This document shows, piece by piece, positions 16,804 through 61,814 of a stretch of 64,000 nt of DNA (its first letter is position 1; each line of letters begins with the position of its first letter). The DNA comes from an uncultured Methanosarcinales archaeon. Its GTDB lineage: Archaea; Nanobdellota; Nanobdellia; Woesearchaeales; ARS49. The position numbers were made by a program, and so were the translations under genes. Under the pieces are notes generated by a model. The model made no database searches and was not told where the DNA came from. It saw only the letters and a program-made list of their open reading frames with translations. The stretch spans positions 144,793 to 208,792 of the forward strand of contig CAZTVK010000019.1 of NCBI GenBank assembly GCA_964617195.1, in the 5' to 3' direction.

Positions 16804-16836
16804 TAATTCGCATCTTTGGCTTTAAATATCTTTCCT

Positions 16837-16873
16837 ACGAAAACATTTATATATAGTTCGGGCGTTTTCTCGT
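16837..16873. promoter_or_regulatory. inverted repeat ACGAAAAC-N19-GTTTTCtCGT enclosing TATA box 'atttatatata' of aIF2-beta gene
   Basis: read directly; 3 nt upstream of ATG 16877. Confidence 0.5.
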
Positions 16874-16876
16874 CTT

Positions 16877-17287: not shown

Positions 17288-17583
17288 TGCTGGTAAGAGT
17301 TCACAGAAAAGAACACAGAGCAATAATATCTGTATGCGACAAAGAACTTCTCGGACAACTATTTGAAGAAAACGGAAAACAACTCGACATAACAGGAGAC
17401 TTCTACAAAGGATCAGAAAAAGACATACAAGAAATAGGAGACTTGATGAGAAACTCAGATGGAGTAAACCTAGTAGGAAAAGAATCAATAGAACTAGGAC
17501 TACAAGAAGGAGTAATAGAACAAAAACAAGTTCTCACAATAAAAGGAATACCACACGCACAAGCAGTGCTGATACACGAATAA
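17284..17583 (+). CDS. DUF424 family protein (conserved partner of aIF2-beta)
   Basis: 'VCDKELLGQLFEENGKQLDITGDFYKGSE...TIKGIPHAQ'; 4-nt overlap with eif2b. Confidence 0.55.
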   Translation: MMLVRVHRKEHRAIISVCDKELLGQLFEENGKQLDITGDFYKGSEKDIQEIGDLMRNSDGVNLVGKESIELGLQEGVIEQKQVLTIKGIPHAQAVLIHE

Positions 17584-17596
17584 TTAGTATAACACG

Positions 17597-36432: not shown

Positions 36433-36816
36433 AAACTCAAAAACGTATTTGATAATATCATAATCAGGCGGATTGAATTTCAAATTCAAAGCCTCCTCTT
36501 CTGTAACCATTTTCATTCCCTGGCCTTCTTTCTGATTGAATGAATTCAGTGCAGGAAGTGGCGATGTGAATGCATATACGGTAAAAGTAACTCCAGGCAA
36601 TCGGTGATTAGATTTCTTAATAAAAATAAAATCCTTCAAGTCATACGATAGCTCTTCCTTTGTCTCACGCACCACTGCCTCTTCAGGAGTCTCTCCAGCT
36701 TTAATCCCGCCGCCAAAGAAACCCCATTCTTCGCCGAATTTACTCATATCCTGCCTATCCTGTACCAGAATTTTATCACCTTTAAAGAAAAAGATTAAAG
36801 CAACATCACGATGCAT
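36400..36816 (-). CDS. NUDIX hydrolase
   Basis: Nudix box 'GGGIKAGETPEEAVVRETKEELS'. Confidence 0.8.
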   Translation of the reverse strand: MHRDVALIFFFKGDKILVQDRQDMSKFGEEWGFFGGGIKAGETPEEAVVRETKEELSYDLKDFIFIKKSNHRLPGVTFTVYAFTSPLPALNSFNQKEGQGMKMVTEEEALNLKFNPPDYDIIKYVFEFLRARENKLGE

Positions 36817-37751
36817 TACTCTTCGCCCGTAGCCTTCACAACAACAGTATCCTGAATGTTCTGCGCGTAATCATAAATCGCCTCAACACTCACCAACTGC
36901 TCAAAGTCAGACCTAGACGAAATAGACTGAGCACAAGAAACAATCTTGCTGCCACCATACAAAGTCACAAAGCCCTCAGCACCATTACTAGTCGTTTCTA
37001 AACCAGTGCATTGCAAGCCAGGCAAATCAGTCTTTACAATAACGTAAACCCTGTTCTCAAACTTGCGCTGCGACAAATCACAAACAGAATTACGCTCAAA
37101 CACATCACCACTACCAGAATTCTTAATTTCAAACGTTAAACCAATCTTGTCCTTAGCACGAGTGTTCTCCTTGAAATCAGCAATCTGCACAGGAGCGCCA
37201 CTATTATACAAAGGCTTATTCTCATTCAACTCACAAATACCACCAGCACGCGGCGTCAATAAATTCTCACGAACGCACAACTTGCTCACAGCCTTTGTCC
37301 TATACAAATAACAAACATCAGCCCTAATAGTAAACTGAGCAGTAGCTCCTGCAATCAAACTATTATGATTCAAACCAGTGAACTCAACAAAAACCTGAGG
37401 ACCAGGCAAAACATTACCCTGAGGATCCTTACGAGTCTCAATCACGTCATCAGGAGCATTCAACACCAAACCATCATCAGACTTAGAAAACTCAGGAGGG
37501 TTAATTCCTGAAATCTTGACCTTCACATTCTGAGCAGGAACCAAAGTCTCGCCCTTATTCTCAAGCTTCACAATAACGTCAAAAGGATCATTACCACCAT
37601 CAAAAACTTCCTTCCTAAAATCCTGAAAACTAAGCAACAAACCCTGAGTGCCGCCAACAAAAGGACTCTCGATAGAAACACTCTTCTTAGCACCAGGCTT
37701 GCACGCTATTACCAACAAGAGCAACATCAAAACAACTAGCAATCTCCTCAT
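36816..37751 (-). CDS. secreted lipoprotein, paralog A of a 3-member tandem family
   Basis: signal peptide + lipobox 'LVIAC'; shared 'CY.Y', 'GAP(I/V)', 'N.G.GDVF', C-terminal 'YDYA/RYGY' with neighbours. Confidence 0.6.
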   Translation of the reverse strand: MRRLLVVLMLLLLVIACKPGAKKSVSIESPFVGGTQGLLLSFQDFRKEVFDGGNDPFDVIVKLENKGETLVPAQNVKVKISGINPPEFSKSDDGLVLNAPDDVIETRKDPQGNVLPGPQVFVEFTGLNHNSLIAGATAQFTIRADVCYLYRTKAVSKLCVRENLLTPRAGGICELNENKPLYNSGAPVQIADFKENTRAKDKIGLTFEIKNSGSGDVFERNSVCDLSQRKFENRVYVIVKTDLPGLQCTGLETTSNGAEGFVTLYGGSKIVSCAQSISSRSDFEQLVSVEAIYDYAQNIQDTVVVKATGEE

Positions 37752-37785
37752 TTTTACACTTCACACTCTTTTTTGTTATTAAACC

Positions 37786-38739
37786 TTACGAAATAGGACG
37801 AATCTCAATCGGCCTGGCAATACTCTGACGATAACCATATCTCAAAATGACATTCAAAGGAGTTACGTACGGACTCTGCTCGCGCATGCCCATAAACTCA
37901 CAGAACAATGTAGCTTGACCATTAGTCAAACGAATATGACCGTCCATCTGATCAACAGGCTTGCAAGTTTCCCTAATGCTCACATCAGCCACGCTAACCT
38001 CGGCAACCTGAATGAAATCAATCTCGTCAAAACCCAAACCAGGATTATAAGGACTGCAGCTATCCATGTACTGAGGACCAAAGCGGAACACGTCACCGCC
38101 GCCAACATTCGAAATACGGATTGTAAACCTAGTCTTTCCAGGAGAAGCATCAACACCAACAGTTGACACTGCAATCGGAGCGCCCTGACTGCCAGGAGAA
38201 ACCATTGTCGGTATGCAAACTTTTTGAACACTCACAGGACCATACGGATTCGGATCAATACACACTTGAGCACTGGCTACAGTCTCATAATTATAACATG
38301 CAGTAGCGAGAATAGTCGGAGTATACTTGTCAATCCTCTTGCCAGTCAAAGACTGGATAGTAGCCCTAAAGTTAACAGTATCAATCCCGCCCTGAGGCAT
38401 AAAAGGACCACGACCCTCCATCACAGGAATCTGCTCACCATACGTGTTAATGCCAGTAATAATTGTATTATCAAAACCAGACAAATAAACCCTATCATAA
38501 GGAGCACCAACAGTGCTAGTTCCCCTGTTCTCAACCTGAATCATTGCATTAAAAGGCTCTCTGTCAAACAATCTCGGAGGAGGCAAATTAGGAACAAAAG
38601 TAAGCATCAAACCCTGAGAACCAGACCTGAAATCAACAGGCTGCGCCTCCTTAGCCTTTCTGCCACCAGCACACGCGACCAGCAATACAAGAAGGAACAC
38701 AACGATAACGCTCTTTTTCATAAACGTCATTCCAATCAC
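37786..38739 (-). CDS. secreted lipoprotein, paralog B
   Basis: signal peptide + lipobox 'LLVAC'; paralog motifs as above. Confidence 0.6.
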   Translation of the reverse strand: MIGMTFMKKSVIVVFLLVLLVACAGGRKAKEAQPVDFRSGSQGLMLTFVPNLPPPRLFDREPFNAMIQVENRGTSTVGAPYDRVYLSGFDNTIITGINTYGEQIPVMEGRGPFMPQGGIDTVNFRATIQSLTGKRIDKYTPTILATACYNYETVASAQVCIDPNPYGPVSVQKVCIPTMVSPGSQGAPIAVSTVGVDASPGKTRFTIRISNVGGGDVFRFGPQYMDSCSPYNPGLGFDEIDFIQVAEVSVADVSIRETCKPVDQMDGHIRLTNGQATLFCEFMGMREQSPYVTPLNVILRYGYRQSIARPIEIRPIS

Positions 38740-38763
38740 TTCCTTATAAATACTTTTTGGTAA

Positions 38764-39723
38764 CTACCTGCTACACGGCTGCTGCTGCGGAAGCTGCGAG
38801 ACCCTCACAGGGAACACAGCAGTATTCACATAACCATACCTAAGCTCAACAGTCAAAACAGTGCTAAACGTGCCAGCAGACATATCATAAATCATATTCG
38901 GATCAGAGCACACAAACGTAGTCTCAACACCAGCCTCAATAGGCACAATACTCCTATCAGTATCCTTCTCTACAGGCGCGCACTTCAAAGATTGCTCTTG
39001 CAGTTCAACATACACATCAGCAAATGGCATCAATTTCTCACGACCCATCTCCTTGCCACTACTGCACGCCAATTCAACATCACTTTCCCTCACAACACTT
39101 CCATAACCCAAGTTTTGCACAAACACGGCAAAACTCGGCCTAACTTTTCCATCAGGAGTAGGAACCATAACAGTCTCCACACGCGTAATCGCAATAGGAG
39201 CGCCCTGCCCTCCAGCCAAAACAACAGGCCCAGACTTACACGGCTTGTTCTTACTAAAACCACGAATATCAGGATCAACACAAACCGGAACGCTCGCCCA
39301 CGTCCTATAAGGATAACAAGCCTGGAAAATCAAAGCAGAAGAATACGACTCCAACTTTTTCGGCAAGTCCAAACTCTCAAACTTCAGCCTAGTGCTGGCA
39401 GTAAAGCCACCAACAGGATTATACTGGCTCTTGCCAACAATCGAAAAATTACTCTGCCTCACGCCAAGAGGCTTGAAAAACTGGTCTTCAACAATCCAAG
39501 TATAATGCCCGTCCTCAATATTCCAAGCGCCAGTATTGCGCAATTCAACAAAAGCCTCACCCTGGCCACACATGAACAAACTACTAGTCGACGCAGGATT
39601 AAAACCAATTTCCAAAGAAGAAGTTCCAACCCTTACAGAAGCAGGAATATCAGGAACTTTCGCACGAGGCTGAGTCAACTGGCAAGCGACTAGCAGTAGC
39701 AATAAAAAAACAAGCTTTCTCAC
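38764..39723 (-). CDS. secreted lipoprotein, paralog C
   Basis: signal peptide + lipobox 'LLVAC'; paralog motifs as above. Confidence 0.6.
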   Translation of the reverse strand: MRKLVFLLLLLVACQLTQPRAKVPDIPASVRVGTSSLEIGFNPASTSSLFMCGQGEAFVELRNTGAWNIEDGHYTWIVEDQFFKPLGVRQSNFSIVGKSQYNPVGGFTASTRLKFESLDLPKKLESYSSALIFQACYPYRTWASVPVCVDPDIRGFSKNKPCKSGPVVLAGGQGAPIAITRVETVMVPTPDGKVRPSFAVFVQNLGYGSVVRESDVELACSSGKEMGREKLMPFADVYVELQEQSLKCAPVEKDTDRSIVPIEAGVETTFVCSDPNMIYDMSAGTFSTVLTVELRYGYVNTAVFPVRVSQLPQQQPCSR

Positions 39724-41825
39724 TTCTTAACCTCTTGCTTCACAGTCACACTCGCCTCTTTCTTAATCCTGTAAGTGTAAAAAATTTCAGACTTAAAACT
39801 TCTGATAGACATAGGAGCGCCACCTAAAACAATAGCAATACCTTGAGGATCAATGTCAGTATGCACACGCAAAGTCTTAGGCAATGTCACAGGCTTCTGG
39901 ACAAAAAACTTCTTCAAAATTTCTCCTTCCAAAACACACTCGTGCTCTTTCATAGAGTTAGGCGAACACTTGACAGCAACGCCATCAACATCCTTAATCA
40001 CCAAACCAGGAGGCGCAGTAATCACGATCTTCGAAACCTCCAACAACTCGCCCTCAATCCAATTCCTATCAAGAGTAATTCCGAGAGTCGGGCCAAACGA
40101 ATCATCAGCAGAATTAGGAGTTGTCAAAGGAATTGGCTGCTGAGCAACACCCATACCAACCTTCAAAGGACCTCCTGTAAAGATTGCGACAGGATTCTTA
40201 TCAGTAATCTCAAACTGGTCAAGAGGATTTGAATTATCCTCAGAATGCTGACGCTTATATGCCCTAATACGGTCCTGCTCCATAAAATAAACCTTCAAAA
40301 ACGAATTTGTTACGAAAGTAAAAGAAGTATCCAAAACAATACGCTGAGGACCCATCTTGCTAGCAGCAGAAATAATGCAATCAATATCCTGACTCTCATA
40401 CTCCTCAACAACAAATTTAGACCGCGGCCTAATCGTGCCAAGCTCTAAAGGAACAGACTCCTCATAACACGTCACAGAAACATTCAACTGCTCATCTGTC
40501 TTGAAAGACGTAGCACGCAAGCGCGCAAACACGTCAATCTGGCCTTCAGGAGAAACAAACTTTGAAGTCACTCCGACATTCTCCAAAAACACACCTAGAG
40601 GTTTCTTACTCTCAGCCTCAACACCCTCCTCATACTCACCAATACCCATCAAATAATTACTCTTAACACCCTTGACAACCTCTTGTCCAGCACGGCCCAG
40701 CAAACCAAACATGCTATACCAAGCATCAATCTGAGAATCAGTCGCATCACGGAACGGACTGCCAGGAGGCGCGTATATTGATGGCACTACAAATAAAGAA
40801 GTGAAGAACAATACGTTAATCACAACAGCAGCCCATTTCAACCCGCCCTTTCTCGTCAACACCCACATGAAATAACCAAACATCACAACAGTCGTGATGA
40901 TGTGAGGGTAAGCATTACCAAGCTCCATCTGTGCCCAAGCAGACATCCAAAAAATCAAGACGCCACCACCCAAATAAGCGCCGACTTCCAAAAGCCGGCT
41001 AATAGATGTGCGTGCAACATCAAAAGTCAACAGCATAATAGCCAAGACAAAAGAGACAGCTATCGAATTATTAGTCGGAGTGGACATATTCAGCCTGTCC
41101 AAAAGCCAAATAAGAATCGGCAACAAGAAAACAATAAAACTCTTCCTAGGCTCCTTGAAAATCAAGCTGATCAACAAGGCCGCGATGACAGAAAACATCA
41201 CCCAATTCGCAAGCTTGCCAAAACCATACATTCTCAGCAGCAACCACAAGAAAATGCCGACAACGAACATAACAGTCGGTCCAACAGCAGCACCACCAAG
41301 CTTTGCAAAAGCACCACCAACTGCTCCAATAGCTCCACCAAACTTCTTAACAAGCTCTTTTGCATATTTTAATCTAGGCCGCAATGATTTTTTTTCATTC
41401 TTCAAAGCCGAGATCCTATTCTTAAGTGGAACAATTTCTGCCGCGGCTTCTGGATTAACCAATGCTTCTGCGATAGCCAAAGCAATGGCCTTGTAAGCAG
41501 CCCTGATTTCAGAATCAATCTGACTGAGCCTCTCCTTAATCTTCCTAACTTCCTCTTCAGCTTCTTTCTTGGCGTGTTCAAGCCTTTCTTTTTCCTCTTC
41601 CTCAAACTCTTCTTTCAGCCTCTTCTCTGCCTCAATTCTTTCTTCATGAGCTCTTTCTTCCTCCCTGCTTGGACCAGCAGGTTGTGCAGGAGCTGATGGT
41701 TGCGGCTGTGCAGGCCTGGCAGCACCATTAGAATAGAATGCAGGTTTAGCAGTTCCATTGACAGAAGGAGTTGAAACCCTCGGAGGAGCCGCAGGAGGGG
41801 CAACAGGAGGAGCGCCTTGTGGCAT
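39720..41825 (-). CDS. large polytopic membrane protein: Pro-rich/coiled-coil cytoplasmic N-domain, ~7 TM, ~350-aa extracytoplasmic C-domain
   Basis: 701 aa; N-term 'PPVAPPAAPP' then E/K-rich coiled coil; Gly-rich 'FGGAIGAVGGAFAKLGGAAVG'; multiple hydrophobic spans. Confidence 0.6.
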   Translation of the reverse strand: MPQGAPPVAPPAAPPRVSTPSVNGTAKPAFYSNGAARPAQPQPSAPAQPAGPSREEERAHEERIEAEKRLKEEFEEEEKERLEHAKKEAEEEVRKIKERLSQIDSEIRAAYKAIALAIAEALVNPEAAAEIVPLKNRISALKNEKKSLRPRLKYAKELVKKFGGAIGAVGGAFAKLGGAAVGPTVMFVVGIFLWLLLRMYGFGKLANWVMFSVIAALLISLIFKEPRKSFIVFLLPILIWLLDRLNMSTPTNNSIAVSFVLAIMLLTFDVARTSISRLLEVGAYLGGGVLIFWMSAWAQMELGNAYPHIITTVVMFGYFMWVLTRKGGLKWAAVVINVLFFTSLFVVPSIYAPPGSPFRDATDSQIDAWYSMFGLLGRAGQEVVKGVKSNYLMGIGEYEEGVEAESKKPLGVFLENVGVTSKFVSPEGQIDVFARLRATSFKTDEQLNVSVTCYEESVPLELGTIRPRSKFVVEEYESQDIDCIISAASKMGPQRIVLDTSFTFVTNSFLKVYFMEQDRIRAYKRQHSEDNSNPLDQFEITDKNPVAIFTGGPLKVGMGVAQQPIPLTTPNSADDSFGPTLGITLDRNWIEGELLEVSKIVITAPPGLVIKDVDGVAVKCSPNSMKEHECVLEGEILKKFFVQKPVTLPKTLRVHTDIDPQGIAIVLGGAPMSIRSFKSEIFYTYRIKKEASVTVKQEVKK

Positions 41826-41828
41826 GGC

Positions 41829-42989
41829 CTACTCCGCTCGAATTTCAAGCCTGACAACATCAAGCTCGGCCAGCGGCTGAATCTCAATATAGTTATTGCC
41901 CTCGCGAATAATAGAACTAATATCACGAGCAAATTTCGGTTCACGCTGGTCAATCACGTCAAGCTTACCATTAATGTTAGTCTTAGCACGCTTCACCCTA
42001 CCATCATCAACAAACTCAATATCAAGAATGATGCGCGCTTTCTTATCAAGCACAGAATTGTACAAGCTCGGCTTCACATCAAAAAAGTCAACCCACGCGC
42101 GCACAGGCTTGATAACAGTCCTCGTGCGCACCTGCTCAATACGATAACTACCCTTAACAATCCTGAAAATCAAAGTGTTCTTGCCATCACGCAAGTCCTC
42201 AAGATACAACTCTTGCCTGTTCAAACTCTCACAAGCAGGAACAGAACTCGAAATAAGCTTTCCATTAAGCTCGATAACCATAGTACCAACACTCTTCTGC
42301 TCGCAAATTGGGTAAAAGTCAAGATAACCAGACTCAAAATTACTCATCTCAACAGAAGAAATACTGAACGTGTTAGTTGATTTTTGTTTTTCAAGATCAG
42401 TAATGTCGCCAATAACCTTGATATCAGCAAAAGAATATTTCCTTTTAGACAAAAATCCGCCCTTCACTGAAAATTCCAAAGTATTAGATTCACGCAACAA
42501 ACTCTTGGACAAAGCAACAGGAGGAGGATTCTGCAACGGCACAGGAGATTCAAAAATCAACGCGCCATTCAACATAATAACCAAAGTGCCCCTGCGCTCA
42601 GGCGCCTGAAAGCTCAACACAACATTCTCAGTGTTCTCCAAATCGGGAATGCTGAAAGAGAAAATTCTTTTCGCCTCACTGAACCAGCCCTTCTTAATCA
42701 TGAAAGGATTTTCCTTGGCCAAAATCTGAGCGTTCCTGGTTTCGACCAAATAAATATTCGGCAAAGGATGGTCAAACTGGTTGCGAGAAACAAACTGAAG
42801 CCTGCCAACAGGCGATTGCAACAAAACTTCCTCAGGCCCGCCATCCCCAGTAACGTTTCCATCACCAAGCAAAGCCTCACGCTCACTAGGAGGCAAGAAT
42901 AGAATATAAAAAATGAATATGAGAGTCATGATGCCAATCAAAGCAGCAGCTGGGCTTCCACTCTGAAGTTTTTGACCACGCCTATTCAT
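41829..42989 (-). CDS. N-terminally membrane-anchored extracytoplasmic protein
   Basis: start at M26 of longer ORF (SD 'aaaggtgat' 6 nt upstream); N-term 'MNRRGQ...AAALIGIMTLIFIFYILFL'. Confidence 0.5.
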   Translation of the reverse strand: MNRRGQKLQSGSPAAALIGIMTLIFIFYILFLPPSEREALLGDGNVTGDGGPEEVLLQSPVGRLQFVSRNQFDHPLPNIYLVETRNAQILAKENPFMIKKGWFSEAKRIFSFSIPDLENTENVVLSFQAPERRGTLVIMLNGALIFESPVPLQNPPPVALSKSLLRESNTLEFSVKGGFLSKRKYSFADIKVIGDITDLEKQKSTNTFSISSVEMSNFESGYLDFYPICEQKSVGTMVIELNGKLISSSVPACESLNRQELYLEDLRDGKNTLIFRIVKGSYRIEQVRTRTVIKPVRAWVDFFDVKPSLYNSVLDKKARIILDIEFVDDGRVKRAKTNINGKLDVIDQREPKFARDISSIIREGNNYIEIQPLAELDVVRLEIRAE

Positions 42990-43125
42990 GAAATCACCTT
43001 TTTTTCCTGAACGATAAACCATCCTGGAGACTATATAAACATTTCTACAATCAAAGCAGCACAATTTAGCGCAACATTTATATACTATTTACTATTGAAA
43101 AGGAGTAAATTATGGGGGAGTTCAT

Positions 43126-43587
43126 ATGAATAGAATACTTAAACTGTTAATCGCAACGTTATTCGTTCTACCAATAGTATCAGCTTCACACAACAGCTAT
43201 GAAAGCTACGGAAACTACGACTATTCATCCCACAAAGACTTCGAATATGTGAATTACCACGAAACAGAAGACGTGTATCGAAATTCTAACCGTGACTCAT
43301 GCGGCTATTACGATTACGACTATTACGGCTCAACATGCAACAATTACGGCGACAGCTACTCATTCCACAGAAGCAGAGACTTTGAATTCGGAAGATACAG
43401 CGAAGACATCTACGCATCAGGAAACTCAAACAGCGGCTACTCAAACTACGGGTATGATACATACCACTACCCGTCAAGCGGCTACTACCCAACATACAGC
43501 TATGACTACGACACAGACTACGAGGGCGGAAGGTACAGCGCAGGAATAGGAATGGGAATGTACGGCTATCTTCCATACGACTACTAA
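43126..43587 (+). CDS. secreted Tyr/Ser/Asp/Gly-rich low-complexity protein
   Basis: Sec signal 'LLIATLFVLPIVSASHN'; ~20% Tyr, repeated 'YDYDYYG', 'SGYSNYGYDTYHY'. Confidence 0.55.
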   Translation: MNRILKLLIATLFVLPIVSASHNSYESYGNYDYSSHKDFEYVNYHETEDVYRNSNRDSCGYYDYDYYGSTCNNYGDSYSFHRSRDFEFGRYSEDIYASGNSNSGYSNYGYDTYHYPSSGYYPTYSYDYDTDYEGGRYSAGIGMGMYGYLPYDY

Positions 43588-44153
43588 TGAAATACGCACT
43601 CATTTTTTTAATACTAATCAGCACAGCAACAGCAACACACGACTTCTACTTTTACAACAACGAGAATGACTTGCACTATAATGTTGCAGGTGCTTTATAC
43701 GACCCATTTGACGGGCATGACGTAGAAGACGTAGTAGATTTTGACGATTACGAATGCATATCCCTAGAAGATCACAATTACTACGCAAATCTAGACCCAT
43801 ACGACGGAATGGACCCTTACACTTCGAAAAACATTGGAAGCAGATTTGACGACCTACGCTACGAAGACCAGATCACAATCATCAACGAAAACCCAAGCGA
43901 CAAATGGGATTCAAATGACGTTAATGACGAAGGCGACATGGAATGCTGGACACTAAAAGACTACAACAGTTATGCAGATGACAGCCAAAGCGACGAATGG
44001 GATGAAGTGTACTTCCACGACTTTGACGATTTAGAAACAGTAAATGAAATCGGAATCCGCAGATACGGATTCATAGAACCAGACGACCTAGCAACGTTTG
44101 ACTTGCAGTACACCGCGCCTCACTACGACGACTACGATTATTATTACAGATAA
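43587..44153 (+). CDS. secreted hyper-acidic Asp/Glu/Tyr-rich protein
   Basis: Sec signal 'ALIFLILISTATATHD'; >20% Asp, paired Cys; start overlaps previous stop. Confidence 0.55.
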   Translation: MKYALIFLILISTATATHDFYFYNNENDLHYNVAGALYDPFDGHDVEDVVDFDDYECISLEDHNYYANLDPYDGMDPYTSKNIGSRFDDLRYEDQITIINENPSDKWDSNDVNDEGDMECWTLKDYNSYADDSQSDEWDEVYFHDFDDLETVNEIGIRRYGFIEPDDLATFDLQYTAPHYDDYDYYYR

Positions 44154-52390: not shown

Positions 52391-52451
52391 CGCCAAGAGG
52401 AAAGTATTTAAACCAATGTTGGTTTTTCCCCTATATAAAAAGAGGGGGATA

Positions 52452-54215
52452 ATGCGGTCGTACACATACATCATAATACTACTACTCAGCGTCTCAGCAC
52501 TAGCGCAAGATGCAATAATAACAGTCTCATTCTCACAAACAGTCCCAAAAAGCACATCCATAGTTCTAAGCACCAGCGCAGTAAGCGGCACTTACGACTT
52601 GGGCAACCCCTTCTTTGTGCAAACACTCACAGTAAGCGCAACCATTCCCTGCTGCACTCCAGGATGGTGGTACGATTCATGGAGATGCTCAATAGGCGGC
52701 GAAGACGCCTACACATACTGCGGATCTGTCAGGCTCTGCGCAGGATATGATGATGACACAATAGTGGACTGCAAGCCACTCGGAAATTTTGCGCCACAGC
52801 AAACCATAACATACAACGTCAACAAAGTCATCCGTACAGTCACTTTTGCATATGGCGACGGACGAACAACTCAGACTGGACAGCAAGTCAACATCAACCA
52901 AATCACCTCAACCGGAGGCGGATTCGCACAAATTCCGCGTTCACTACCATCACTCAGAGGACCAGCACCAATATTCCTAGGACTCGTACGAGAAAAAATA
53001 GTAGTAGGCGACTACACAGGAGACTTCCTCGTCTCCAGCAGCGACCCACGAGCACTCGCATGGTTCCACCCAACAGGAGGAATAAGCGCAGTAGACAGAA
53101 CAACAACACCAAACTTTGATGACGAAATACACGCATGTCTCGACTCAGACGCAAACAAACTATGCGATTACGACGACGAACTGGAATGTGAAGGACAAGA
53201 CAAAGACTGGTACAACGGAGATTGCTGCCACGACGCTCCATTCAACCCGGAATCAGAAACACCTCCAAATGAATGCCAATGGTACGGAACAGAAAACACG
53301 AAGAAAATGGACGCAGTATGCGGAAAAGACGACCAAGGCATATGGAAATGGGCAGCACTAGGAGATATCGGATTAATCAACATACTAAGCGGCAGCTGCC
53401 CAACAATGCAAATAGTCTCAGACGGAACAACATTCTACACGTGCAGCACGGGCAGCCAGACAGTCATTCCAACAGACCTAGTCAAACCACTCACAGAAAA
53501 GATGACGATCTTCGGACACGAATACTTCTGCCAAGGTGAAACCATAATAGAATGCGGAGGAAGCGCACCATACTCACCAACCGCAAAACAAATAGGAGCA
53601 TCAACAACATATGAAAACAAAAAACAATACTGTACAGCACAAGGCAGATGGGTCACAAGCCTTGACAGCGCAGGAAGAGACTCTTGTGTCGCTGCCGGAC
53701 TTCGCTGGACAGGCACGAAGTGTTGCGGAGAAACAGACGACCCACTAGAAACGTATGAAGACCCATACACAGGACAAGGAACAGCAGGAGCCTGCTACAA
53801 CAACCAATTCATCGCATCAGGAAGCTTCTTCTCAGGAACAAAAGACATCATCAACTACAGAGGAAAGTTCGCAATCTGCGAGCCAACAAGACTGCCAGGA
53901 ACAAGCGCAACAACAACAGCGCCAGAATTCACAGGCACAACAATCACGCCAATAGCATACGGACCATGCGGAACACCATTACAACAAGCAATCCTGACAG
54001 GAACTTTACAGCACATAGTCTGCATGCCAAGCGGAGACTGGCAGTTCACAAGCAAAACAGAACCACACCTCGTAAAACAAACAATCTGGATGCCATCAGA
54101 AGTAGAAGACAAAAAAGGATGCTGCCCGGAAAACCAATGCTGGGACGGACAACAATGCAAAGACATCGGATATTACTATGACAAAATCATCGGAAAGGGG
54201 TACAGATGCGAATAA
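52452..54215 (+). CDS. secreted Cys-rich extracellular protein
   Basis: start at 'MRSYTYIIILLLSVSALA' (SD 'gagggggat' upstream, TATA ~52404); ~40 Cys, 'CC' pairs. Confidence 0.6.
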   Translation: MRSYTYIIILLLSVSALAQDAIITVSFSQTVPKSTSIVLSTSAVSGTYDLGNPFFVQTLTVSATIPCCTPGWWYDSWRCSIGGEDAYTYCGSVRLCAGYDDDTIVDCKPLGNFAPQQTITYNVNKVIRTVTFAYGDGRTTQTGQQVNINQITSTGGGFAQIPRSLPSLRGPAPIFLGLVREKIVVGDYTGDFLVSSSDPRALAWFHPTGGISAVDRTTTPNFDDEIHACLDSDANKLCDYDDELECEGQDKDWYNGDCCHDAPFNPESETPPNECQWYGTENTKKMDAVCGKDDQGIWKWAALGDIGLINILSGSCPTMQIVSDGTTFYTCSTGSQTVIPTDLVKPLTEKMTIFGHEYFCQGETIIECGGSAPYSPTAKQIGASTTYENKKQYCTAQGRWVTSLDSAGRDSCVAAGLRWTGTKCCGETDDPLETYEDPYTGQGTAGACYNNQFIASGSFFSGTKDIINYRGKFAICEPTRLPGTSATTTAPEFTGTTITPIAYGPCGTPLQQAILTGTLQHIVCMPSGDWQFTSKTEPHLVKQTIWMPSEVEDKKGCCPENQCWDGQQCKDIGYYYDKIIGKGYRCE

Positions 54216-55327
54216 AAATTCTCATCATAACAGCATTGCTCCTTTCAACACTAGTTGCGGCAGCAGACTGGAAAGAAGTCAATGTTAAGTACACCACTGA
54301 CAGAAAATCAGTAGGATACTGCAAAGACCCAAACCAATGCCTAGTAAGCAACGCGTTCAGCGACAACTGGGACAACCTGCCAGAAAGATACTGGTCAGAA
54401 ACACTCAACCAAAACAAGCCAAAATGCATAACGACTGGGCAGTACATCTCAGACAACTACTGCGACAACGGAATCTGGAGCTCAAGAACAAAATTAATAG
54501 CCGAACACCTGCTCGCGACAGCCCTCAACACAACACCAAACAACTTCTCAATATTCTGCGACACATACAAAACTGTCCTCAACAGGTACGCGTACAGCAC
54601 GGATTATGGAACCGTAACCAGCTACATATCAACACTCTGCATACAACCCGGCAACAAGCGCTCAGACATCTGCGTAAACAACATCTGCGTCATGCGATAC
54701 GGACAAAGCACAGCCTTCGGAATGGCGATCAACACAGACATCAACGGAGCAAAAAGCACGCTACAAGCACTCAACATGAGCCCAAGCGAATGCGACAGTG
54801 CAATAGACAATGACGCAAAGTTCGACCCATGCGGAAACGGACTATGGTACGACCACAACACAAACTCCATAATCTACGCACCAGACGTAGCACTTCTTCC
54901 AGTGCCTACAAGCGTCACAAATGACTTTTTCATGCTACCATACAACAAACTCAAAGACTACGTTTACACAGTAGTCCACAAACCAGACATCGTCAGATAC
55001 AACTACACATTCTTCAACCTGCCACCACAATTCCAACAAGTCTACATGGCAAAAGACGAATTCGACTTTTTCTACTCATTCAGACAAAAAAACGTCACAC
55101 TAGCACAAATCACATACGCGGGATGGTACCTATCAAACATCAAACTACCTGACGACACGTGCAGCAGAATAATCAAAAGATACGACAGCTGGGCAAACTG
55201 CGAAGAACAACCAAACCCATCAGAATTCTACATCGCAGCACACAGAACCCCGCCAACAAAAACAGACCAAAGAGCAAGCATAGTCGACGCGTGGGAAGAA
55301 ATGGAAAAAATCAGGGTGAGCCCGTGA
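54206..55327 (+). CDS. secreted Cys-containing extracellular protein
   Basis: Sec signal 'ILIITALLLSTLVAAADW'; overlaps previous gene by 10 nt. Confidence 0.6.
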   Translation: MRIKILIITALLLSTLVAAADWKEVNVKYTTDRKSVGYCKDPNQCLVSNAFSDNWDNLPERYWSETLNQNKPKCITTGQYISDNYCDNGIWSSRTKLIAEHLLATALNTTPNNFSIFCDTYKTVLNRYAYSTDYGTVTSYISTLCIQPGNKRSDICVNNICVMRYGQSTAFGMAINTDINGAKSTLQALNMSPSECDSAIDNDAKFDPCGNGLWYDHNTNSIIYAPDVALLPVPTSVTNDFFMLPYNKLKDYVYTVVHKPDIVRYNYTFFNLPPQFQQVYMAKDEFDFFYSFRQKNVTLAQITYAGWYLSNIKLPDDTCSRIIKRYDSWANCEEQPNPSEFYIAAHRTPPTKTDQRASIVDAWEEMEKIRVSP

Positions 55328-56718
55328 AGAAAGCGCAAATCACAATCTTCATCATCATCGGTGCATTAGTCCTCGTAGCATTCGGAATAACATTCTACGT
55401 CGGCTCAAAAATGGGCCAACGCATAGAAACAAAAGAAACCACACAACGCATAGAACAACTCGGCATACAACCAATACAAGACTACATCACAACATGCCTT
55501 TCGCTAGCCACAACAGAAGGACTCTCCCTAATCGGCAGACAAGGAGGAGCCATCTACAAAAAACAAGGAGGACTAACACAAGACCACATTGAAGGCGAAG
55601 GAGAAAAGTACGTCAAGTACACAGACCCAGACTTAGGAATACTAGACGTATCATTCCTAATCCATCCCCCAATGGAAAACGTTGGACAATTAGGATGCCA
55701 GCAAAGCAAAACATGCCTCTTCTACTCAGAACCACCAACCTATCCCTTTGAAGGATTCCCATACCTGCCAGACGGCAGCACACTATTCAACGGATATTAT
55801 GGCATAAGCAAACTCCCACCATTATACAAAATCAGCCAAGACGCAGAACGCAAAAAAGTCGAAGGAAGCATACAAGAAAACCTGGAAACATTCATCGCAA
55901 AAAGAACAACAGACTGCGTGAACTGGAAAACATTCCAAGAAAAAGGATACACAATAACTGCAGGCACTGCAGATGCGTCTTTATTATTCGCAGAAAAAGA
56001 ACAAGTAGAAAAGTTTGTTGCGAGCGGAGCGTTTGGCGAACAACACATAAGCGTAGAACTACTCTGGCCGATAGAAGTCGCCACGCCAGGAGGAGATAAA
56101 ACAATACTCAAAGACTTCGCAATCAAAACACAAGTACGACTCGTCACAATCTATTACACGATCAAAGCAATGATAGACGGAGACGTAACAGACGTATCCT
56201 ACACTCCAGAAAGCAAAGGAGAATTCTCAACCTTAATTTTGCCATACGGCCACAACAGTTTCATCATAACAAAAGACGCGCAAAGCATGGTTGGAAACAA
56301 ACCATTCGAATTCTGGATACCACGCAAGAACAGACGACCAGCAATATGGAAAATAGATACAACACCACTGAAAGGCATCACCCTGCACATCACACCAGAC
56401 GGAACCGGAACACGAATAAAAATCGTGAAAATCAACGACAACGAATCACAAATAGAATTCGAAGACCCATGCCCAACAGAAACACTCCCAATAATCAAAC
56501 TACGAGCATCAGACCCAGATGAAGACCCAGTAAGCTTCGCAGTCCACATTCCGGCAAGCACAAACGATAGAATACCGCAAGACGCAGTAAATTTCGAAAA
56601 GTTCAGCATCACAATATACGCAAAAGACAGAAGCCAACACGACAATAACTGGTTTGACTCAGAAGAAATAATTTTCCAAGACGTACCAATGCAGGTAGGA
56701 ATATGCGAAGTACGATAA
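55324..56718 (+). CDS. extracellular protein with class III (type IV pilin-like) signal peptide
   Basis: GTG start overlapping previous stop (GTGA); N-term 'VKKA|QITIFIIIGALVLVAFGITFYV' = basic n-region, +1 Gln, 21-aa hydrophobic stretch. Confidence 0.5.
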   Translation: MKKAQITIFIIIGALVLVAFGITFYVGSKMGQRIETKETTQRIEQLGIQPIQDYITTCLSLATTEGLSLIGRQGGAIYKKQGGLTQDHIEGEGEKYVKYTDPDLGILDVSFLIHPPMENVGQLGCQQSKTCLFYSEPPTYPFEGFPYLPDGSTLFNGYYGISKLPPLYKISQDAERKKVEGSIQENLETFIAKRTTDCVNWKTFQEKGYTITAGTADASLLFAEKEQVEKFVASGAFGEQHISVELLWPIEVATPGGDKTILKDFAIKTQVRLVTIYYTIKAMIDGDVTDVSYTPESKGEFSTLILPYGHNSFIITKDAQSMVGNKPFEFWIPRKNRRPAIWKIDTTPLKGITLHITPDGTGTRIKIVKINDNESQIEFEDPCPTETLPIIKLRASDPDEDPVSFAVHIPASTNDRIPQDAVNFEKFSITIYAKDRSQHDNNWFDSEEIIFQDVPMQVGICEVR

Positions 56719-59700
56719 ACATACTAGTCACGATCACAGCGCTTTTACTAATCCTACCAATCTTCACAACCGCACAACCAGCAGTCGGATGCTGCTGCGA
56801 CCCAATCCTAAAACGCGGCAGTTTCACAACAGCAGCAGAATGCGCAGCACTAGGATTCAACTTCACAGGACCACCACCAAGCCTGAGCATCACTTGCGAC
56901 CAGCACTGCGAAGCAATACTCATACCAGAAGCGCCAGCACAATGCGGAGACAATATCTGCCAAGCAACAGAAACAGCTTCAACCTGCCCAGGAGACTGCG
57001 CACCAATAGTTTCAGGCTGCGGAAGCCCAGCCTACAAGCCCCCAGCAGAACAATTCACAATCACACCAGTCAAAAACACCAAAGCACTCATACTCAGCTT
57101 CACAGTGCCCTGCCCATCAGACTACATAACAGTTCAGCGCTGTCCAGGAACAGACTGCACAAACTTCACAACAATAGCAGAAATCCCGCCAACAACAGTC
57201 TTCACAGACGAAGACTCACAATTAGAATTCAACAAAGACTACAACTACCAAATAAAAGCACACTACACAATAGCAGGAGAAGGAGAACCGGCAACAGCCA
57301 TCGGAAACGCAGGAGACATAGAATGCTGGCAGCAAAAAAAAGAAACCTTCTGCCTCAACGACTTTTCGTACGATCAATACTTAGAATACCTTACAAAATT
57401 CGGATACGCCCGAAACAGCGCGGCAATATTCCAAGCAGCATTCGATAGAACAGTAGACCTCACATTCTCAACAAGATTCAACAAAGCATGGCAATGCAAC
57501 GACATCAACCTCTTAGCAGAGCCAAGCCCGCAAACAACCTGCGACAGCAAACAAAACGAATACTGCATCTCAGACGAAAACGGAGCAAGATGCGCAAGAA
57601 GAGAACCATGCGGACCAGGATTTGACCCATTCGGCCTGTATGCCATCCAAGACGCATGCGAAGCAACAGGATTCCTGCCAAGATACTGCTTTTTTGACAA
57701 AAGCATCACAACACCAGACAAATGCTACAGCTGCGACCCAAGAATGACCTGCTATGACTACAAAGGCAAAAACGCATGCGAACGCGACAATTGCGGAGCA
57801 GGAGACTGCCAATGGCGACAAGTATTCGAAGACATAGGAACAGGAGTATGCGTTGACACGAGATACAACAACTGCGAACTCTGCGACAAAAAAGGAACAC
57901 CAGACATAGAAAATTCCAACGCAACCAGCGACATTTGGGACGCGTGCAGAGAAGAAAAAAGCACAGCACTAAGCACAACAGCATACCCCTGCTTCTACGA
58001 CAAAGACAGAAAAAGAAGCAAAACATGTGATGAAGCGACGTGCGCTGATTACACAGAACTCCAATGCGGCTCACCAGAAGGAGGAATCAAACTAAACCCA
58101 GACAACAAAATAATCAAGAAAAGCACAGACACCTGCAGCATAGGAGTCTGCCACCACACCAGAGAAACAGGATGCATAAAAAATGCAGACGGAAACATCG
58201 GAGCAGGATTCCAAGACTGCGCGTACGGCAACAAAACCTGCGAACAAGACTACTTCCCACCAATCACCACACTCATACCAACAGGACTCGCAGGAAGAGT
58301 AGACCTCATCAACATAAGAATATTCGACAAGACAAGCAGGGCAACAGCACCAGTCAACTACGCAGGAAAACCAGGCTACAGAACATACCTATGCGTCAAA
58401 AATGAAACAAACACGTGCGCAGACTCGCGCGCATTCAACATAGCAGTCAACACAGCGCAACTCGTCCTGAAAAACACAGCACTCAAACTTGCAAACAAAA
58501 CGCTAGCCAAACTAGATACAGGCAACAACACAATAACATTCTACAGCAGAGACGCAGCAAACAACCTCGAAATATTGCGAGACATGAACATATTCGCCTG
58601 CGAAAAATGCAGCGGGCCAACACTATTGAATTTCACAGTAACAGGCGGAAGAATAATCGGAAAAACAATCTACACCTCAGCAAAAAGGCCAACATTCACG
58701 TTCACTTTCGACGAGCAGACAATAGTAACGTACGCAGACATAACAAGACCAGAAACAGGCACGATCTCGCTAACACAACAAACCCCAGGAGCACACGAAA
58801 TACACTCATTCATCCCAATCGCAGACCTGCAAGGAACCTACAATTTCACAATCAACGGGCACAACGACCAAAACATCTACTTCGACCCAGCATTATCCTT
58901 TACATTAATCGCAGACCCAGACCTCGCAGACGTCAACATCACCCCGGCAGACGGAAGCATACTCAACAAAACACTCGTAGACATAGAACTAAACTTCAGC
59001 AAACCTGTGACACTCAACAACATCACACTATCACTAGAAACATTCGAAGACCCATACATCAAAAAAGAAACAAAAAGAGACATCACTGCACTGTTCAAAA
59101 CAACCAACAACAGAACATACACGGCAAAAGCAGACAAAATCTCCGGAGGAAAAAACACGATAATAGTAGACGCGCTAGGCTACAACGCGCTCAACATCTA
59201 CAAAGAAAGCAGCTTCTTCGTATCAATAACAAAACCAGGAATAAGACTAACCAAACCAGACTTCGGAGTAACAGCATACTCAATATTCAACACAAGCATA
59301 GAAACACAACTATCCGCAAAATGCGCATACGTCTTCGACGCGCCAACCGCACCAAGCAGCACAGACTTCGAATTCTTCAAACAAATGGAAGGCACAGGCA
59401 CAATGCACACATCAAGCGGGCTAAGCATCAACTACGGAGACCCAAACGCGCACCCGCTCCACGTCTACTGCAACTTTGAAGATTACGGATTCGGAATCAT
59501 ACAACGAACATTCAACCTAACACTAGACCCAGACCCGCCAATAATCAAAAAATCATTCGCAGAACCATCAGTAATAGCAGAACAATACTACCCAGACAGA
59601 GAAATCTACGTCACAACACTCAAAACACAACTGAACAAGCCAGGATTCTGCAAATACTCAGCAAGCATCAGCAACTTCGCCAATATGGAAGGACTCTTCC

Positions 59701-61814
59701 CAGGATACGACATCGCACCAAAAGAAAGCCTCGGAGCAGACGTTAATGTCACAGAGAAAAAAACACACGACTATTGGATCGTATGCAAAGGCAAAAACCA
59801 ATTGCTGTCAAAACCAGAAAAAGTATCGTTCACAATAGACCTCGCGCAAAAACTGAATGTCTCAAGCAGCACTCCACAAGGATTCGCAACAACGAACTTC
59901 ACAATAGGAGTAGTTGCGAACAAAAGAGTATTCTGCTATTTCGGAGAACAAGAAGACGACACGACAAAATGCATGGGCGCCTGCACGTCAAGCTACACAC
60001 AATCACAAAAAATCACGGTAAGCGCACCCGGCCCATACACCTACTTCGTAAAATGCGCACACGTCACAGGAGAACAATCAGACGTAATAGAAATCCCAGT
60101 CATAATTGACACCTCACCGCCAACAATGGATTACGTAAAAGACGACGGCTCAATAACAGAAGACCCAGCCATCACATGGTCGCAAAGCAAAATAAGAGTA
60201 GCAGTCAACGCAAAAGACGAAGAAAGCGGAATATCACACTACCTCATCACGCTCAAAGGACAGACAGACAACAAAATAGAATTCAAAGACTACGTCAGCG
60301 ACATAACAAATGGAGAGTACTTCTACATCAGACTCAAGCCAAACGGCGAGCCATTCAGACTCAGAAACGACAACAGTTACAAATTCGTCGTCAAAGCAGT
60401 CAACAGAGTAGGACTTGAAAGCGAAATAATGGAAAGTGACGGAGTACGAGTAGACACGTCCCAAGAACCAGGACCCTGCGGAGACGGAGAACTAAGCCAA
60501 AACGAAACAGACATGGACTGCGGAGGAGAATGCGACGGTTGCCCAGAAAACAGGAAATGCGGAATTGACGGAGACTGCGCGACAAACTACTGCCAAGACA
60601 AACTCTGCAAAGTAGCAAGCTGCGAAGACGGCTACAAGAACGGCCTCGAATCAGACGTTGATTGCGGCGGACAAACCTGCAACCAATGCGAAAAAGACAT
60701 GCGCTGCATCCAACACGCAGACTGCAAAACAGAATACTGCGACATACAACAAGAAATTTGCGTAGACGCGCCACCATGCGCAGACAAACTACTCACAACA
60801 GGAGAAACAGACATAGACTGCGGAGGACCATGCGAAAAATGCAAAGAAGACCAAAACTGCGCTGAAAAAACAGACTGCTCAGAAGAACTCTACTGCACAC
60901 CAGACACAAAAAAATGCAGCTCGGAAATACCAGGAGACGAAGACCACGACGGAATACTGGACGACATTGATGACTGCTTCGGCACACCAGCAGACGAAAC
61001 ACCAGACGAAAAAGGCTGCGGGCCATCACAAACATTCACACTAGGCGACGACATCAACGACAGATGGAGAATGGACCACTTCAAATGCATAGACTGCCCA
61101 GAAGCAGCAACAGACGCAGACCCAGACAAAGATGGATTAACGAACCTCCAAGAATTCACACAAGGAACCAATCCAACAAAGAAAGACACAGACGGAGACG
61201 GATGGAAAGACGGCGTTGAGCTAGACAAAGGCACAAGTCCAACAGACCCAGCAAGCCACCCGCCAAGCATATTCCTCGGATTCCTCTGGACAATATTCAT
61301 ACTCCTCCTAATCGCAGGAGCAGGCTACGGAATCTACATAGTCCTGCAAGCACGAAAAGAAAAGAAAAAACCTGCCATAGCTGAAAAATACGCCATCGAA
61401 AGACCACCAGCTAAAATCACAGCAGCAGAAGAAATCGCCAAACTAAAAGAATTCGCAAAAGAAGAAGAAATTCCGGAAAAAGACTGGATATCACTGGAAA
61501 AAGTCATCAAGAAAAAACCACTTCCACCCAAGAAATTCGCAGAAGCAATAGAACAACTGCGAAAAATCGCGCACAAAGAACGCGCAAAACCAGAACAACC
61601 ACTAATGCGACTACGAGCAATGCTGGATGAAATCGGCGAAGACGAAAAAATAGAACTCTTAGCACGCTGGAAAATGTTGAAAGCGGGATTGCTCACAAAA
61701 GCAGAAATCGAAGAACTCCTAAGAAGACTCAAAATAACAGCACAATACTACCACGCGCACAAAGAAGAACTCGACCAAGAACTGGCACACTATGGCAGGC
61801 GCAAAAAACACTAA
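56703..61814 (+). CDS. giant (1703 aa) type-I membrane surface protein / adhesin with Cys-rich modules and thrombospondin type-3-like Ca-binding repeats
   Basis: Sec signal; 3x 'CG(D)GE..ETD.DCGG.C..C' modules; 'DEDHDGILDDIDDC', 'DADPDKDGLTNLQEF', 'DTDGDGWKDGVELD'; C-terminal TM 'IFLGFLWTIFILLLIAGAGYGIYIVL' + charged tail. Confidence 0.7.
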   Translation: MRSTINILVTITALLLILPIFTTAQPAVGCCCDPILKRGSFTTAAECAALGFNFTGPPPSLSITCDQHCEAILIPEAPAQCGDNICQATETASTCPGDCAPIVSGCGSPAYKPPAEQFTITPVKNTKALILSFTVPCPSDYITVQRCPGTDCTNFTTIAEIPPTTVFTDEDSQLEFNKDYNYQIKAHYTIAGEGEPATAIGNAGDIECWQQKKETFCLNDFSYDQYLEYLTKFGYARNSAAIFQAAFDRTVDLTFSTRFNKAWQCNDINLLAEPSPQTTCDSKQNEYCISDENGARCARREPCGPGFDPFGLYAIQDACEATGFLPRYCFFDKSITTPDKCYSCDPRMTCYDYKGKNACERDNCGAGDCQWRQVFEDIGTGVCVDTRYNNCELCDKKGTPDIENSNATSDIWDACREEKSTALSTTAYPCFYDKDRKRSKTCDEATCADYTELQCGSPEGGIKLNPDNKIIKKSTDTCSIGVCHHTRETGCIKNADGNIGAGFQDCAYGNKTCEQDYFPPITTLIPTGLAGRVDLINIRIFDKTSRATAPVNYAGKPGYRTYLCVKNETNTCADSRAFNIAVNTAQLVLKNTALKLANKTLAKLDTGNNTITFYSRDAANNLEILRDMNIFACEKCSGPTLLNFTVTGGRIIGKTIYTSAKRPTFTFTFDEQTIVTYADITRPETGTISLTQQTPGAHEIHSFIPIADLQGTYNFTINGHNDQNIYFDPALSFTLIADPDLADVNITPADGSILNKTLVDIELNFSKPVTLNNITLSLETFEDPYIKKETKRDITALFKTTNNRTYTAKADKISGGKNTIIVDALGYNALNIYKESSFFVSITKPGIRLTKPDFGVTAYSIFNTSIETQLSAKCAYVFDAPTAPSSTDFEFFKQMEGTGTMHTSSGLSINYGDPNAHPLHVYCNFEDYGFGIIQRTFNLTLDPDPPIIKKSFAEPSVIAEQYYPDREIYVTTLKTQLNKPGFCKYSASISNFANMEGLFPGYDIAPKESLGADVNVTEKKTHDYWIVCKGKNQLLSKPEKVSFTIDLAQKLNVSSSTPQGFATTNFTIGVVANKRVFCYFGEQEDDTTKCMGACTSSYTQSQKITVSAPGPYTYFVKCAHVTGEQSDVIEIPVIIDTSPPTMDYVKDDGSITEDPAITWSQSKIRVAVNAKDEESGISHYLITLKGQTDNKIEFKDYVSDITNGEYFYIRLKPNGEPFRLRNDNSYKFVVKAVNRVGLESEIMESDGVRVDTSQEPGPCGDGELSQNETDMDCGGECDGCPENRKCGIDGDCATNYCQDKLCKVASCEDGYKNGLESDVDCGGQTCNQCEKDMRCIQHADCKTEYCDIQQEICVDAPPCADKLLTTGETDIDCGGPCEKCKEDQNCAEKTDCSEELYCTPDTKKCSSEIPGDEDHDGILDDIDDCFGTPADETPDEKGCGPSQTFTLGDDINDRWRMDHFKCIDCPEAATDADPDKDGLTNLQEFTQGTNPTKKDTDGDGWKDGVELDKGTSPTDPASHPPSIFLGFLWTIFILLLIAGAGYGIYIVLQARKEKKKPAIAEKYAIERPPAKITAAEEIAKLKEFAKEEEIPEKDWISLEKVIKKKPLPPKKFAEAIEQLRKIAHKERAKPEQPLMRLRAMLDEIGEDEKIELLARWKMLKAGLLTKAEIEELLRRLKITAQYYHAHKEELDQELAHYGRRKKH

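Follow-up and report, generated by a model that had tools for sequence, protein, structure and literature searches.

In a 64,000-nucleotide stretch of the archaeal contig CAZTVK010000019.1 (the whole of which we call the window), two adjacent plus-strand genes encode small secreted proteins of extreme composition: a Tyr-rich protein, here P1, and an Asp-rich protein, here P2. They form a pair that is undescribed at the level of both sequence and predicted fold and that is, as to kind, a new, archaeal two-component version of secreted, compositionally biased surface proteins. Wherever the flank could be read, a gene for a secreted Tyr-rich protein lies beside the P2-like gene, and this strict pairing across deep divergence, which an original prediction made from the letters of the window had missed, is the strongest clue to their function. 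The pair and its export signals are laid out as follows:

43126 to 43587, plus strand: P1, a secreted Tyr/Ser/Gly/Asp-rich protein of 153 amino acids (open reading frame (ORF), homologues and dN/dS, the ratio of nonsynonymous to synonymous change)
43126 to 43185, plus strand: P1 signal peptide, amino acids 1-20, with predicted cleavage after VSA (n-h-c layout, conserved in alignment A2)
43585 to 43589, plus strand: TAATG, in which the P1 stop overlaps the P2 start, coupling both (read from the sequence)
43587 to 44153, plus strand: P2, a secreted, folded, Asp-rich all-alpha protein of 188 amino acids (ORF, alignments and AlphaFold)
43587 to 43634, plus strand: P2 signal peptide, amino acids 1-16, with predicted cleavage after ATA (layout; modelled as a helix over residues 2-16)

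P1 consists of 20.9% Tyr (24% in the mature protein and 19-29% among homologues), 13.7% Ser, 9.8% Gly, 9.2% Asp and 7.2% Asn, with an isoelectric point (pI) of 4.5 and a net charge of -14, and P2 of 18.6% Asp (20.5% without its signal peptide), 11.2% Tyr and 6.9% Glu, with a pI of 4.05 and a net charge of about -39. Both are extreme outliers among the 92 window ORFs of at least 120 amino acids, the others reaching no more than 6.7% Tyr and 7.9% Asp, and their composition is not the product of DNA tandem repeats, none of which occur in the region. The sole hydrophobic segment of each protein is N-terminal—with K/R before it and a small-x-small site after it (VSA/S in P1, ATA/T in P2, the slash marking cleavage)—and beyond the first 25 residues the maximum 15-mer hydropathy is at most 0.3. 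With signal peptides called by rule (a K/R n-region, a 10-15-residue h-region and small residues at -3/-1), both proteins, whose N-termini read MNR-ILKLLIATLFVLPIV-SA/S and MK-YALIFLILIS-TATA/T, are predicted to be Sec-dependent substrates of signal peptidase I, and the layout is kept in every homologue of either. Neither has a Cys near its cleavage site, as an archaeal lipoprotein would, nor a C-terminal hydrophobic segment of the archaeosortase (PGF-CTERM) type; the region has no Rfam match, and the window holds no second copy of P1 or P2. The original prediction had described a secreted tandem pair with about 20% Tyr in the first protein and more than 20% Asp in the second; the secretion signals and the Tyr content are borne out, whereas the Asp figure is right for mature P2 but not for the full-length protein.

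Both genes are genuine. A 5.8-billion-protein collection holds 13 clusters of P1 homologues at 45-100% identity and 23 clusters of P2 homologues at 46-89% identity, and in a codon-level comparison of the window pair with four to five related loci the proportion of nonsynonymous differences (pN) was 0.11-0.22 against a synonymous proportion (pS) of 0.62-0.71, giving a dN/dS of 0.05-0.17 (0.11-0.17 for P1, 0.12-0.35 for its tail, and 0.055 for P2). The two proteins are under purifying selection, and conservation in related genomes, on which the original prediction had staked its case, is evident in the homologue clusters and the dN/dS values alike. At silent sites the plus strand is ~82% A+C, and Tyr, Asp and Asn are encoded by TAC, GAC and AAC, so that the ORFs might be thought spurious by-products of a base composition favouring these codons—the codon choice of P1 and P2 (TAC, GAC) does agree with that of other plus-strand genes of the window. 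Yet protein conservation reaches down to 25-46% identity with Cys and Asp invariant, dN/dS is low as stated, one related locus (L022) retains the pair despite 56% G+C and a skew of opposite sign, and the remaining plus-strand genes of the window do not exceed 6.7% Tyr. The conservation data refute the artefact, and we put the chance of spurious ORFs at practically nil.

An alignment of the upstream regions of 8 loci revealed conserved signals, among them an AGGAGT also common to all 8 regions upstream of P1:

43077 to 43084, plus strand: TATA box TTTATATA of the P1-P2 unit, invariant in 8 of 8 loci and 42 nt 5' of the P1 ATG
43088 to 43096, plus strand: TTTACTATT element between the TATA box and the leader, nearly invariant in the 8 loci
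43114 to 43120, plus strand: Shine-Dalgarno-like GGGGGAG, 6 nt before the P1 ATG, its G-rich block conserved in the 8 loci

The TTTACTATT element lies close to the expected transcription start, a position that may point to a role there.

We examined all retrieved loci for pairing, drawing on genome contigs, metagenome contigs and exact look-ups. Of the 20 loci with a usable flank, 20 have a secreted ORF rich in Tyr (14-26%) as the same-strand neighbour of the P2-like gene, a figure equal to ~14-15 independent lineages because several loci are near-duplicates; two further loci have the P2-like gene at the edge of a contig. The close and intermediate clades place the Tyr-rich gene upstream, usually with an overlap or a gap of no more than ~100 nt before the P2-like gene, and wider synteny is kept, with a divergent gene for a 386-amino-acid membrane protein on one side and, beyond P2, genes for Pelota, TrmB and PheRS-alpha on the other. 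This synteny persists in L022, where P2 identity has fallen to 35%, and stop/start overlaps equivalent to TAATG are seen in L003 and L022 and implied by ORF coordinates in L011, L016 and L020. The most distant clade (P2 identity 25-35%) has the order reversed, the acidic gene preceding the Tyr-rich one, and its other neighbours differ, including glutaredoxin and DoxX. A hidden Markov model (HMM) of the conserved P1 module scores the L004, L003 and L022 partners above shuffles, and the distant-clade partner is at least compositionally equivalent to P1. Furthermore, the acidic domain is fused to Tyr/Gly/Ser/Asn-rich segments in P0052, P0054, P0055, P0058, P0060, P0069 and P0074, the first of which has a plain transmembrane anchor and a basic tail at its C-terminus, fitting a cell-surface location. 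Strict co-inheritance, translational coupling and these Rosetta-stone-type fusions together argue that the two proteins are parts of one extracellular unit.

Several features of the distant clade were observed alongside. The C-termini of distant P2-like proteins (P0059-P0072) carry a conserved DGYGG[YI]ASW[VY]R that resembles both the invariant DYEGGRYS near the C-terminus of P1 (43513-43536 in the window) and the YGG[RS]Y of Tyr-rich partners; such a motif may have passed from one component to the other. A glutaredoxin and DoxX pair stands just upstream of the P2-like gene in L006/L007 and again in L009/L010, and in L006 and L008 the P2-like gene is divergent from a gene for a conserved 148-155-amino-acid membrane protein with a Cys-rich ectodomain, of which the window has no homologue (coordinates: L006, 6769-7897; L009, 6303-7017; L010, 1159-1873; L008, 721-1188). 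These neighbours hint at a possible thiol or disulfide link.

The two proteins differ in architecture. P2, though compositionally biased, is not low-complexity but a folded, internally duplicated domain: low-entropy 12-mers cover 12 of its 188 residues, and its alignment is almost gap-free, with 33 invariant columns that include both Cys. Its two halves are homologous, residues 41-79 matching residues 104-142 with an hhalign probability of 97.5% (E 5.5e-12) and 37% identity by blastp, and each comprises an Asp-rich lead-in, one Cys, a helix C-x-x-L-x-D-Y-N-x-Y-A and a loop [DN]-x-[DN]-P-[FY]-D-x-hydrophobic-D:

43707 to 43823, plus strand: P2 repeat A, amino acids 41-79, with D-rich lead-in, C57, helix LxDxNxYA and loop N-x-D-P-Y-D-x-M-D (hhalign, blastp)
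43896 to 44012, plus strand: P2 repeat B, amino acids 104-142, with D-rich lead-in, C120, helix LKDYNSYA and loop D-x-S-x-x-D-x-W-D (hhalign, blastp)

C57 and C120 form exactly one pair, invariant in 40 sequences, rather than the two pairs originally predicted, and probably staple the domain by a putative disulfide. Together with D94 and D105 they are invariant across the broad P2 family, as are D42, D73, L60, L90 and A67 in alignment A5, while D117, D136, N127 and A130 are nearly so. AlphaFold2 reached a mean predicted local distance difference test score (pLDDT) of 68 with 24 sequences and of 77.6 with 40 sequences that included the distant clade (predicted template modelling score, pTM, 0.71), the latter model being all-alpha; on this modelling, P2 is predicted to be a folded, all-alpha protein that arose by internal duplication.

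P1, for which the low-complexity label of the original prediction is apt (46 of 153 residues in low-entropy 12-mers), is divided into a conserved module and a variable tail:

43213 to 43416, plus strand: P1 conserved N-terminal module, amino acids 30-97, holding 27 of the 33 invariant columns of alignment A2, both Cys included
43417 to 43584, plus strand: P1 Tyr/Ser/Gly/Asp low-complexity tail, amino acids 98-153, indel-rich and variable in A2, low-entropy

The module consensus runs DYSxxKDFEYVNYHETED, then the C59-C71 loop CGYYDYDYYGSxC, then HRSRDFEFGRYHED (RYSED in the window protein); C59 and C71 are its one invariant Cys pair, and the tail terminates in a conserved DYEGGRYS...YGYLPYxY. 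Common ancestry of P1 and P2 was considered and rejected (hhalign probability 0.1%).

Both families are restricted in distribution and lack known relatives. When 1.84 billion cluster representatives were searched exhaustively with a profile, 17 P2-like clusters emerged, a profile search of the 5.8-billion set gave 42, and every named source is a Candidatus Woesearchaeota or Nanoarchaeia; the homologues include groundwater and geyser metagenome records, for example CG10 and Hainich. Neither P1 nor P2 has a Pfam or NCBIfam match, 24 family members scanned against Pfam at E<=10 yielded no more than scattered single matches, none of the 42 P2-like clusters has a relevant precomputed Pfam domain, and PDB profile searches with alignments A2 and A3 found nothing significant (best E 0.34). 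In the literature we found no description of Tyr-rich or acidic secreted proteins in DPANN archaea or Woesearchaeota. Two records deserve comment: L002 (CAZCCU010000004.1) and L005 (CAYSMN010000018.1), third-party annotation (TPA) metagenome-assembled genomes (MAGs) titled 'uncultured Methanosarcinales archaeon', have the same locus and synteny as Woesearchaeota MAGs, and their taxonomic labels are probably wrong. P0075 (235 amino acids), in which a PF08240 (alcohol-dehydrogenase GroES-like) N-terminus precedes the C-terminal half of a distant P2-like protein, most likely reflects chimeric assembly or gene calling and not a genuine fusion.

What the P2 family conserves is particular Asp positions, not bulk charge: Asp makes up 11-21% of all members, with net charges from -4 to -64. 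P2-like proteins also carry a recurrent 12-residue loop, D/N-x-D/N/S-x-x-D/N/G-x-hydrophobic-D-x-x-D/E, that resembles EF-hand and dockerin loops at positions 1, 3, 8, 9 and 12, examples being NENPSDKWDSND from the window and, from relatives, DSDPYDGLDRDD and DENPYDAIDRDD. This relaxed pattern occurs 57 times in 41 of the 54 members, as against 5.3 +/- 2.2 times in composition-matched shuffles (~11-fold). The window protein has its best example here:

43884 to 43919, plus strand: EF-hand-like loop of P2, N100-ENPSDKWDSN-D111 (relaxed pattern; predicted secondary structure)

In the model, this loop sits between a helix at 92-101 and a short helix at 109-111, and it contains D105, invariant family-wide. 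It is a candidate metal-binding site, and an EF-hand-like mode of Ca2+ binding by P2 is plausible from the arrangement of these residues, in line with the cation binding that the original prediction had proposed.

Taking these observations together, we favour—tentatively, as a possible rather than a probable explanation—the reading that P1 and P2 constitute a two-component extracellular surface module with P2 as an Asp-rich scaffold and P1 as its Tyr-rich partner. The genes would form a co-transcribed, translationally coupled module specific to DPANN archaea of the Woesearchaeota/Nanoarchaeia type, and both products would be exported by the Sec pathway to act jointly outside the cell. There, the conserved Asp-rich helix-loop units of P2 would probably serve as divalent-cation (Ca2+) sites and the Cys-loop module of P1 would dock on P2, while the fast-evolving P1 tail would self-associate non-covalently by aromatic stacking and hydrogen bonding. 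Jointly, the two would build or organise a cohesive layer or cement at the cell surface, in which, in the clade of the window, the products of the divergent envelope operon described below would also take part.

A number of results weigh against this reading. Both window proteins carry net negative charge (-14 and -39) and would therefore repel each other unless cation bridges or specific contacts intervened, and the family range of net charge means that extreme acidity is not a family-wide property. The canonical EF-hand pattern, PROSITE PS00018 (D-x-[DNS]-{ILVFYW}-[DENSTG]-[DNQGHRK]-{GP}-[LIVMC]-[DENQSTAGC]-x2-[DE]-[LIVMFYW]), matches just one of the 54 P2-family members (P0060, not the window protein); the EF-hand, dockerin and TSP3 Pfam models match none of 24 members at E<=10, nor is there any EF-hand-type profile match to window P2 at E<=0.1; and the predicted P2 fold matches no Ca-binding protein and is not superposable on EF-hand domains. 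Since pattern, profiles and fold all fail, membership of P2 in the EF-hand family was rejected. As for the pairing, the independent lineages behind it are fewer than the loci, the P1 HMM does not score distant-clade Tyr-rich partners above shuffles, and the pair does not adjoin the envelope operon in the most distant clade.

Some of this evidence could be read differently, with cation handling as the main job. P2 would then be an extracellular, calmodulin- or calsequestrin-like Ca2+ or metal buffer, a sensor, or an anti-scaling factor on the surface of an ultra-small cell in carbonate-rich groundwater, and P1 an accessory mineral- or cation-interacting peptide, by analogy with statherin. The Asp content of all members, the invariant D42, D73, D94 and D105 and nearly invariant D117 and D136 (A5), the ~11-fold excess of EF-hand-like loops, the charge of -39 on window P2, the groundwater and geyser origin of some homologues (such as CG10 and Hainich records), and the canonical Ca-binding TSP3 repeats in what looks like a giant surface protein of the same genome are all in keeping with this idea. 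It meets the same failure of the canonical pattern (1 of 54) and of the EF-hand, dockerin and TSP3 models, however, and some members are nearly neutral in net charge; moreover, it leaves the obligatory Tyr-rich partner and the Tyr-rich-tail fusions unexplained, and we judge it unlikely. An adhesive for host or other cells, befitting a DPANN episymbiont, with P1 as a sticky mussel-foot-like glue and P2 as its carrier or anchor, seems to us less likely again. The proteins are secreted, one fusion variant is surface-anchored, the pair is confined to Woesearchaeota/Nanoarchaeia and adjoins an envelope operon, and the Tyr-rich tail is fast-evolving and indel-rich, as for an interface under diversifying pressure. 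That tail nevertheless retains a low dN/dS (0.12-0.35), no host-interaction domains are present, the pair is set among housekeeping genes (Pelota, TrmB, PheRS) behind a strong, constitutive-looking promoter, and nothing separates an adhesive from a general structural role.

Least probable among these functional alternatives, and in our view very improbable, is a wall cross-linked through dityrosine, of the kind known from insect resilin, Bacillus spore coats and the oocyst walls of coccidia. P1 homologues do have the high Tyr content (19-29%) of exported proteins of this kind, and the original prediction had raised oxidative cross-linking of Tyr. Against it, no oxidase or peroxidase accompanies the pair in the loci whose neighbours were examined: the neighbours annotated with Pfam in three distant loci and the ~20 scanned window proteins include no peroxidase, laccase or tyrosinase. 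The lineage is generally regarded as a largely anoxic dweller of groundwater and sediment (some of the records are identifiably from groundwater), and P1 has no homology to any known cross-linked protein. Returning to the surface module that we favour, its most ambitious form would be a new archaeal material system in which Ca2+-loaded, all-alpha, new-fold P2 templates or anchors P1 into a non-covalent, phase-separated or cross-beta-like cement on ultra-small cells, serving envelope cohesion, host attachment or anti-encrustation; this specific version we regard as unlikely.

The nearest known analogues of P2 and of P1 resemble them in composition or motif only. P2 recalls the EF-hand and dockerin helix-loop-helix proteins (calmodulin-like) in being small, very acidic (pI ~4) and all-alpha, in its ~30-residue repeat units with a helix followed by a 12-residue Asp-rich loop—acidic or amide at positions 1, 3, 9 and 12 and hydrophobic at 8—and in the internal duplication that gives paired units. 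Calsequestrin, the Asp-rich shell-matrix proteins and statherin are, like P2, secreted or luminal and about 20% Asp, and statherin likewise joins an acidic to a Tyr-rich element. In contrast to such acidic cation binders and biomineralisation proteins, P2 is neither poly-Asp nor disordered and has its Asp at fixed, conserved positions of a predicted fold; it is related to them in neither sequence nor fold, and net charge is not kept within its family. In curli CsgA/CsgB and in TasA/TapA, neighbouring, co-expressed genes encode a self-associating subunit and a nucleating, anchoring or chaperoning partner, an analogy of organisation only: the pair has no similarity to these in sequence, composition or fold, and no secretion or assembly machinery is encoded alongside it.

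P1, for its part, resembles Bacillus CotC/CotU, resilin, mussel foot proteins and plant Gly/Tyr-rich wall proteins in being exported, containing 20-30% Tyr together with Gly/Ser/Asn/Asp and having a fast-evolving low-complexity tail. The same holds for coccidian oocyst-wall proteins, and Tyr-rich wall proteins cross-linked by dityrosine are well documented in eukaryotes (PMC7366593, PMC3261165). Unlike these Tyr-rich structural proteins, to which it has no homology, P1 is archaeal, has no associated oxidase among annotated neighbours, and combines a conserved N-module bearing a Cys loop with a folded acidic partner that is obligatory.

At present, then, P1 and P2 are an undescribed family pair with a proposed role, not a demonstrated mechanism. 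They make up a compact module, apparently strongly expressed, that is strictly co-inherited and lies beside an uncharacterised envelope operon; being two small proteins whose recombinant production is feasible, they are also tractable. If the fold and loops of P2 are truly a Ca2+-binding architecture, that architecture would be new, and so would P1 as a self-assembling prokaryotic material based on Tyr, should it prove to be one. Most DPANN archaea have yet to be cultured, a large part of their surface proteome is genomic dark matter, and their lifestyle—as host-attached or ultra-small cells—depends on the envelope.

On the other side of the promoter region, as originally predicted, the pair is transcribed divergently from an envelope operon of five minus-strand genes:

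36816 to 42989, minus strand: five-gene operon encoding membrane or secreted products, divergent from the pair
43032 to 43039, minus strand: TATA box TTTATATA of the divergent operon, within the conserved block GGAAACTATATAAACGTTTCT

The block GGAAACTATATAAACGTTTCT is kept in most of the 8 aligned loci, L016 being the exception. The position of this TATA box, 43 nt upstream of the ATG at 42989, indicates that the first minus-strand gene truly starts at 42989 and encodes 386 amino acids, rather than starting as in a 411-amino-acid ORF or a 397-amino-acid gene call. Its N-terminally anchored product is accompanied by a 701-amino-acid polytopic protein with a Pro/Ala-rich and coiled-coil N-terminus and by three ~315-amino-acid paralogues with lipobox-like (lipoprotein-like) signals. 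None of the five proteins has a Pfam or NCBIfam match, and PDB searches with the 386-amino-acid protein and one lipoprotein paralogue gave nothing significant. At least the first gene or genes of the operon are syntenic with the pair in L001, L002, L003 and L022, spanning P2 identities from 82% down to 35%.

The wider window is marked by a strong strand asymmetry. Across positions 1-64000, plus-strand AT skew is +0.17 to +0.50 and GC skew -0.01 to -0.26 in every 4-kb bin, with no skew switch within the window. Third codon positions are 50% A and 34% C in plus-strand genes and 48% T and 32% G in minus-strand genes, a mirrored usage that leaves plus-strand silent sites ~82% A+C whatever the gene orientation. 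A G/C-only analogue of this asymmetry has been described for a bacterium of the Candidate Phyla Radiation (PMC7143001). The window also contains a replication-gene cluster (12217-23763), comprising MCM (12217-14229, plus strand) and, on the minus strand, PolD DP2 (17597-21112), PolD DP1 (21113-22543) and Cdc6/Orc1 (22528-23763); cumulative GC skew falls monotonically through it, so that no origin-type switch is visible there.

Finally, the plus strand encodes a 1703-amino-acid protein (56703-61814) that carries a signal peptide and is Cys-rich at its N-terminus; near the C-terminus it has a transmembrane helix, and its cytoplasmic tail is charged. Upstream of it lie secreted ORFs without a Pfam match (52416-55327). 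The protein bears TSP3-type Ca-binding repeats (DTDGDGWKD; a weak PF18884 match) and, from these sequence features, looks like a giant surface protein.

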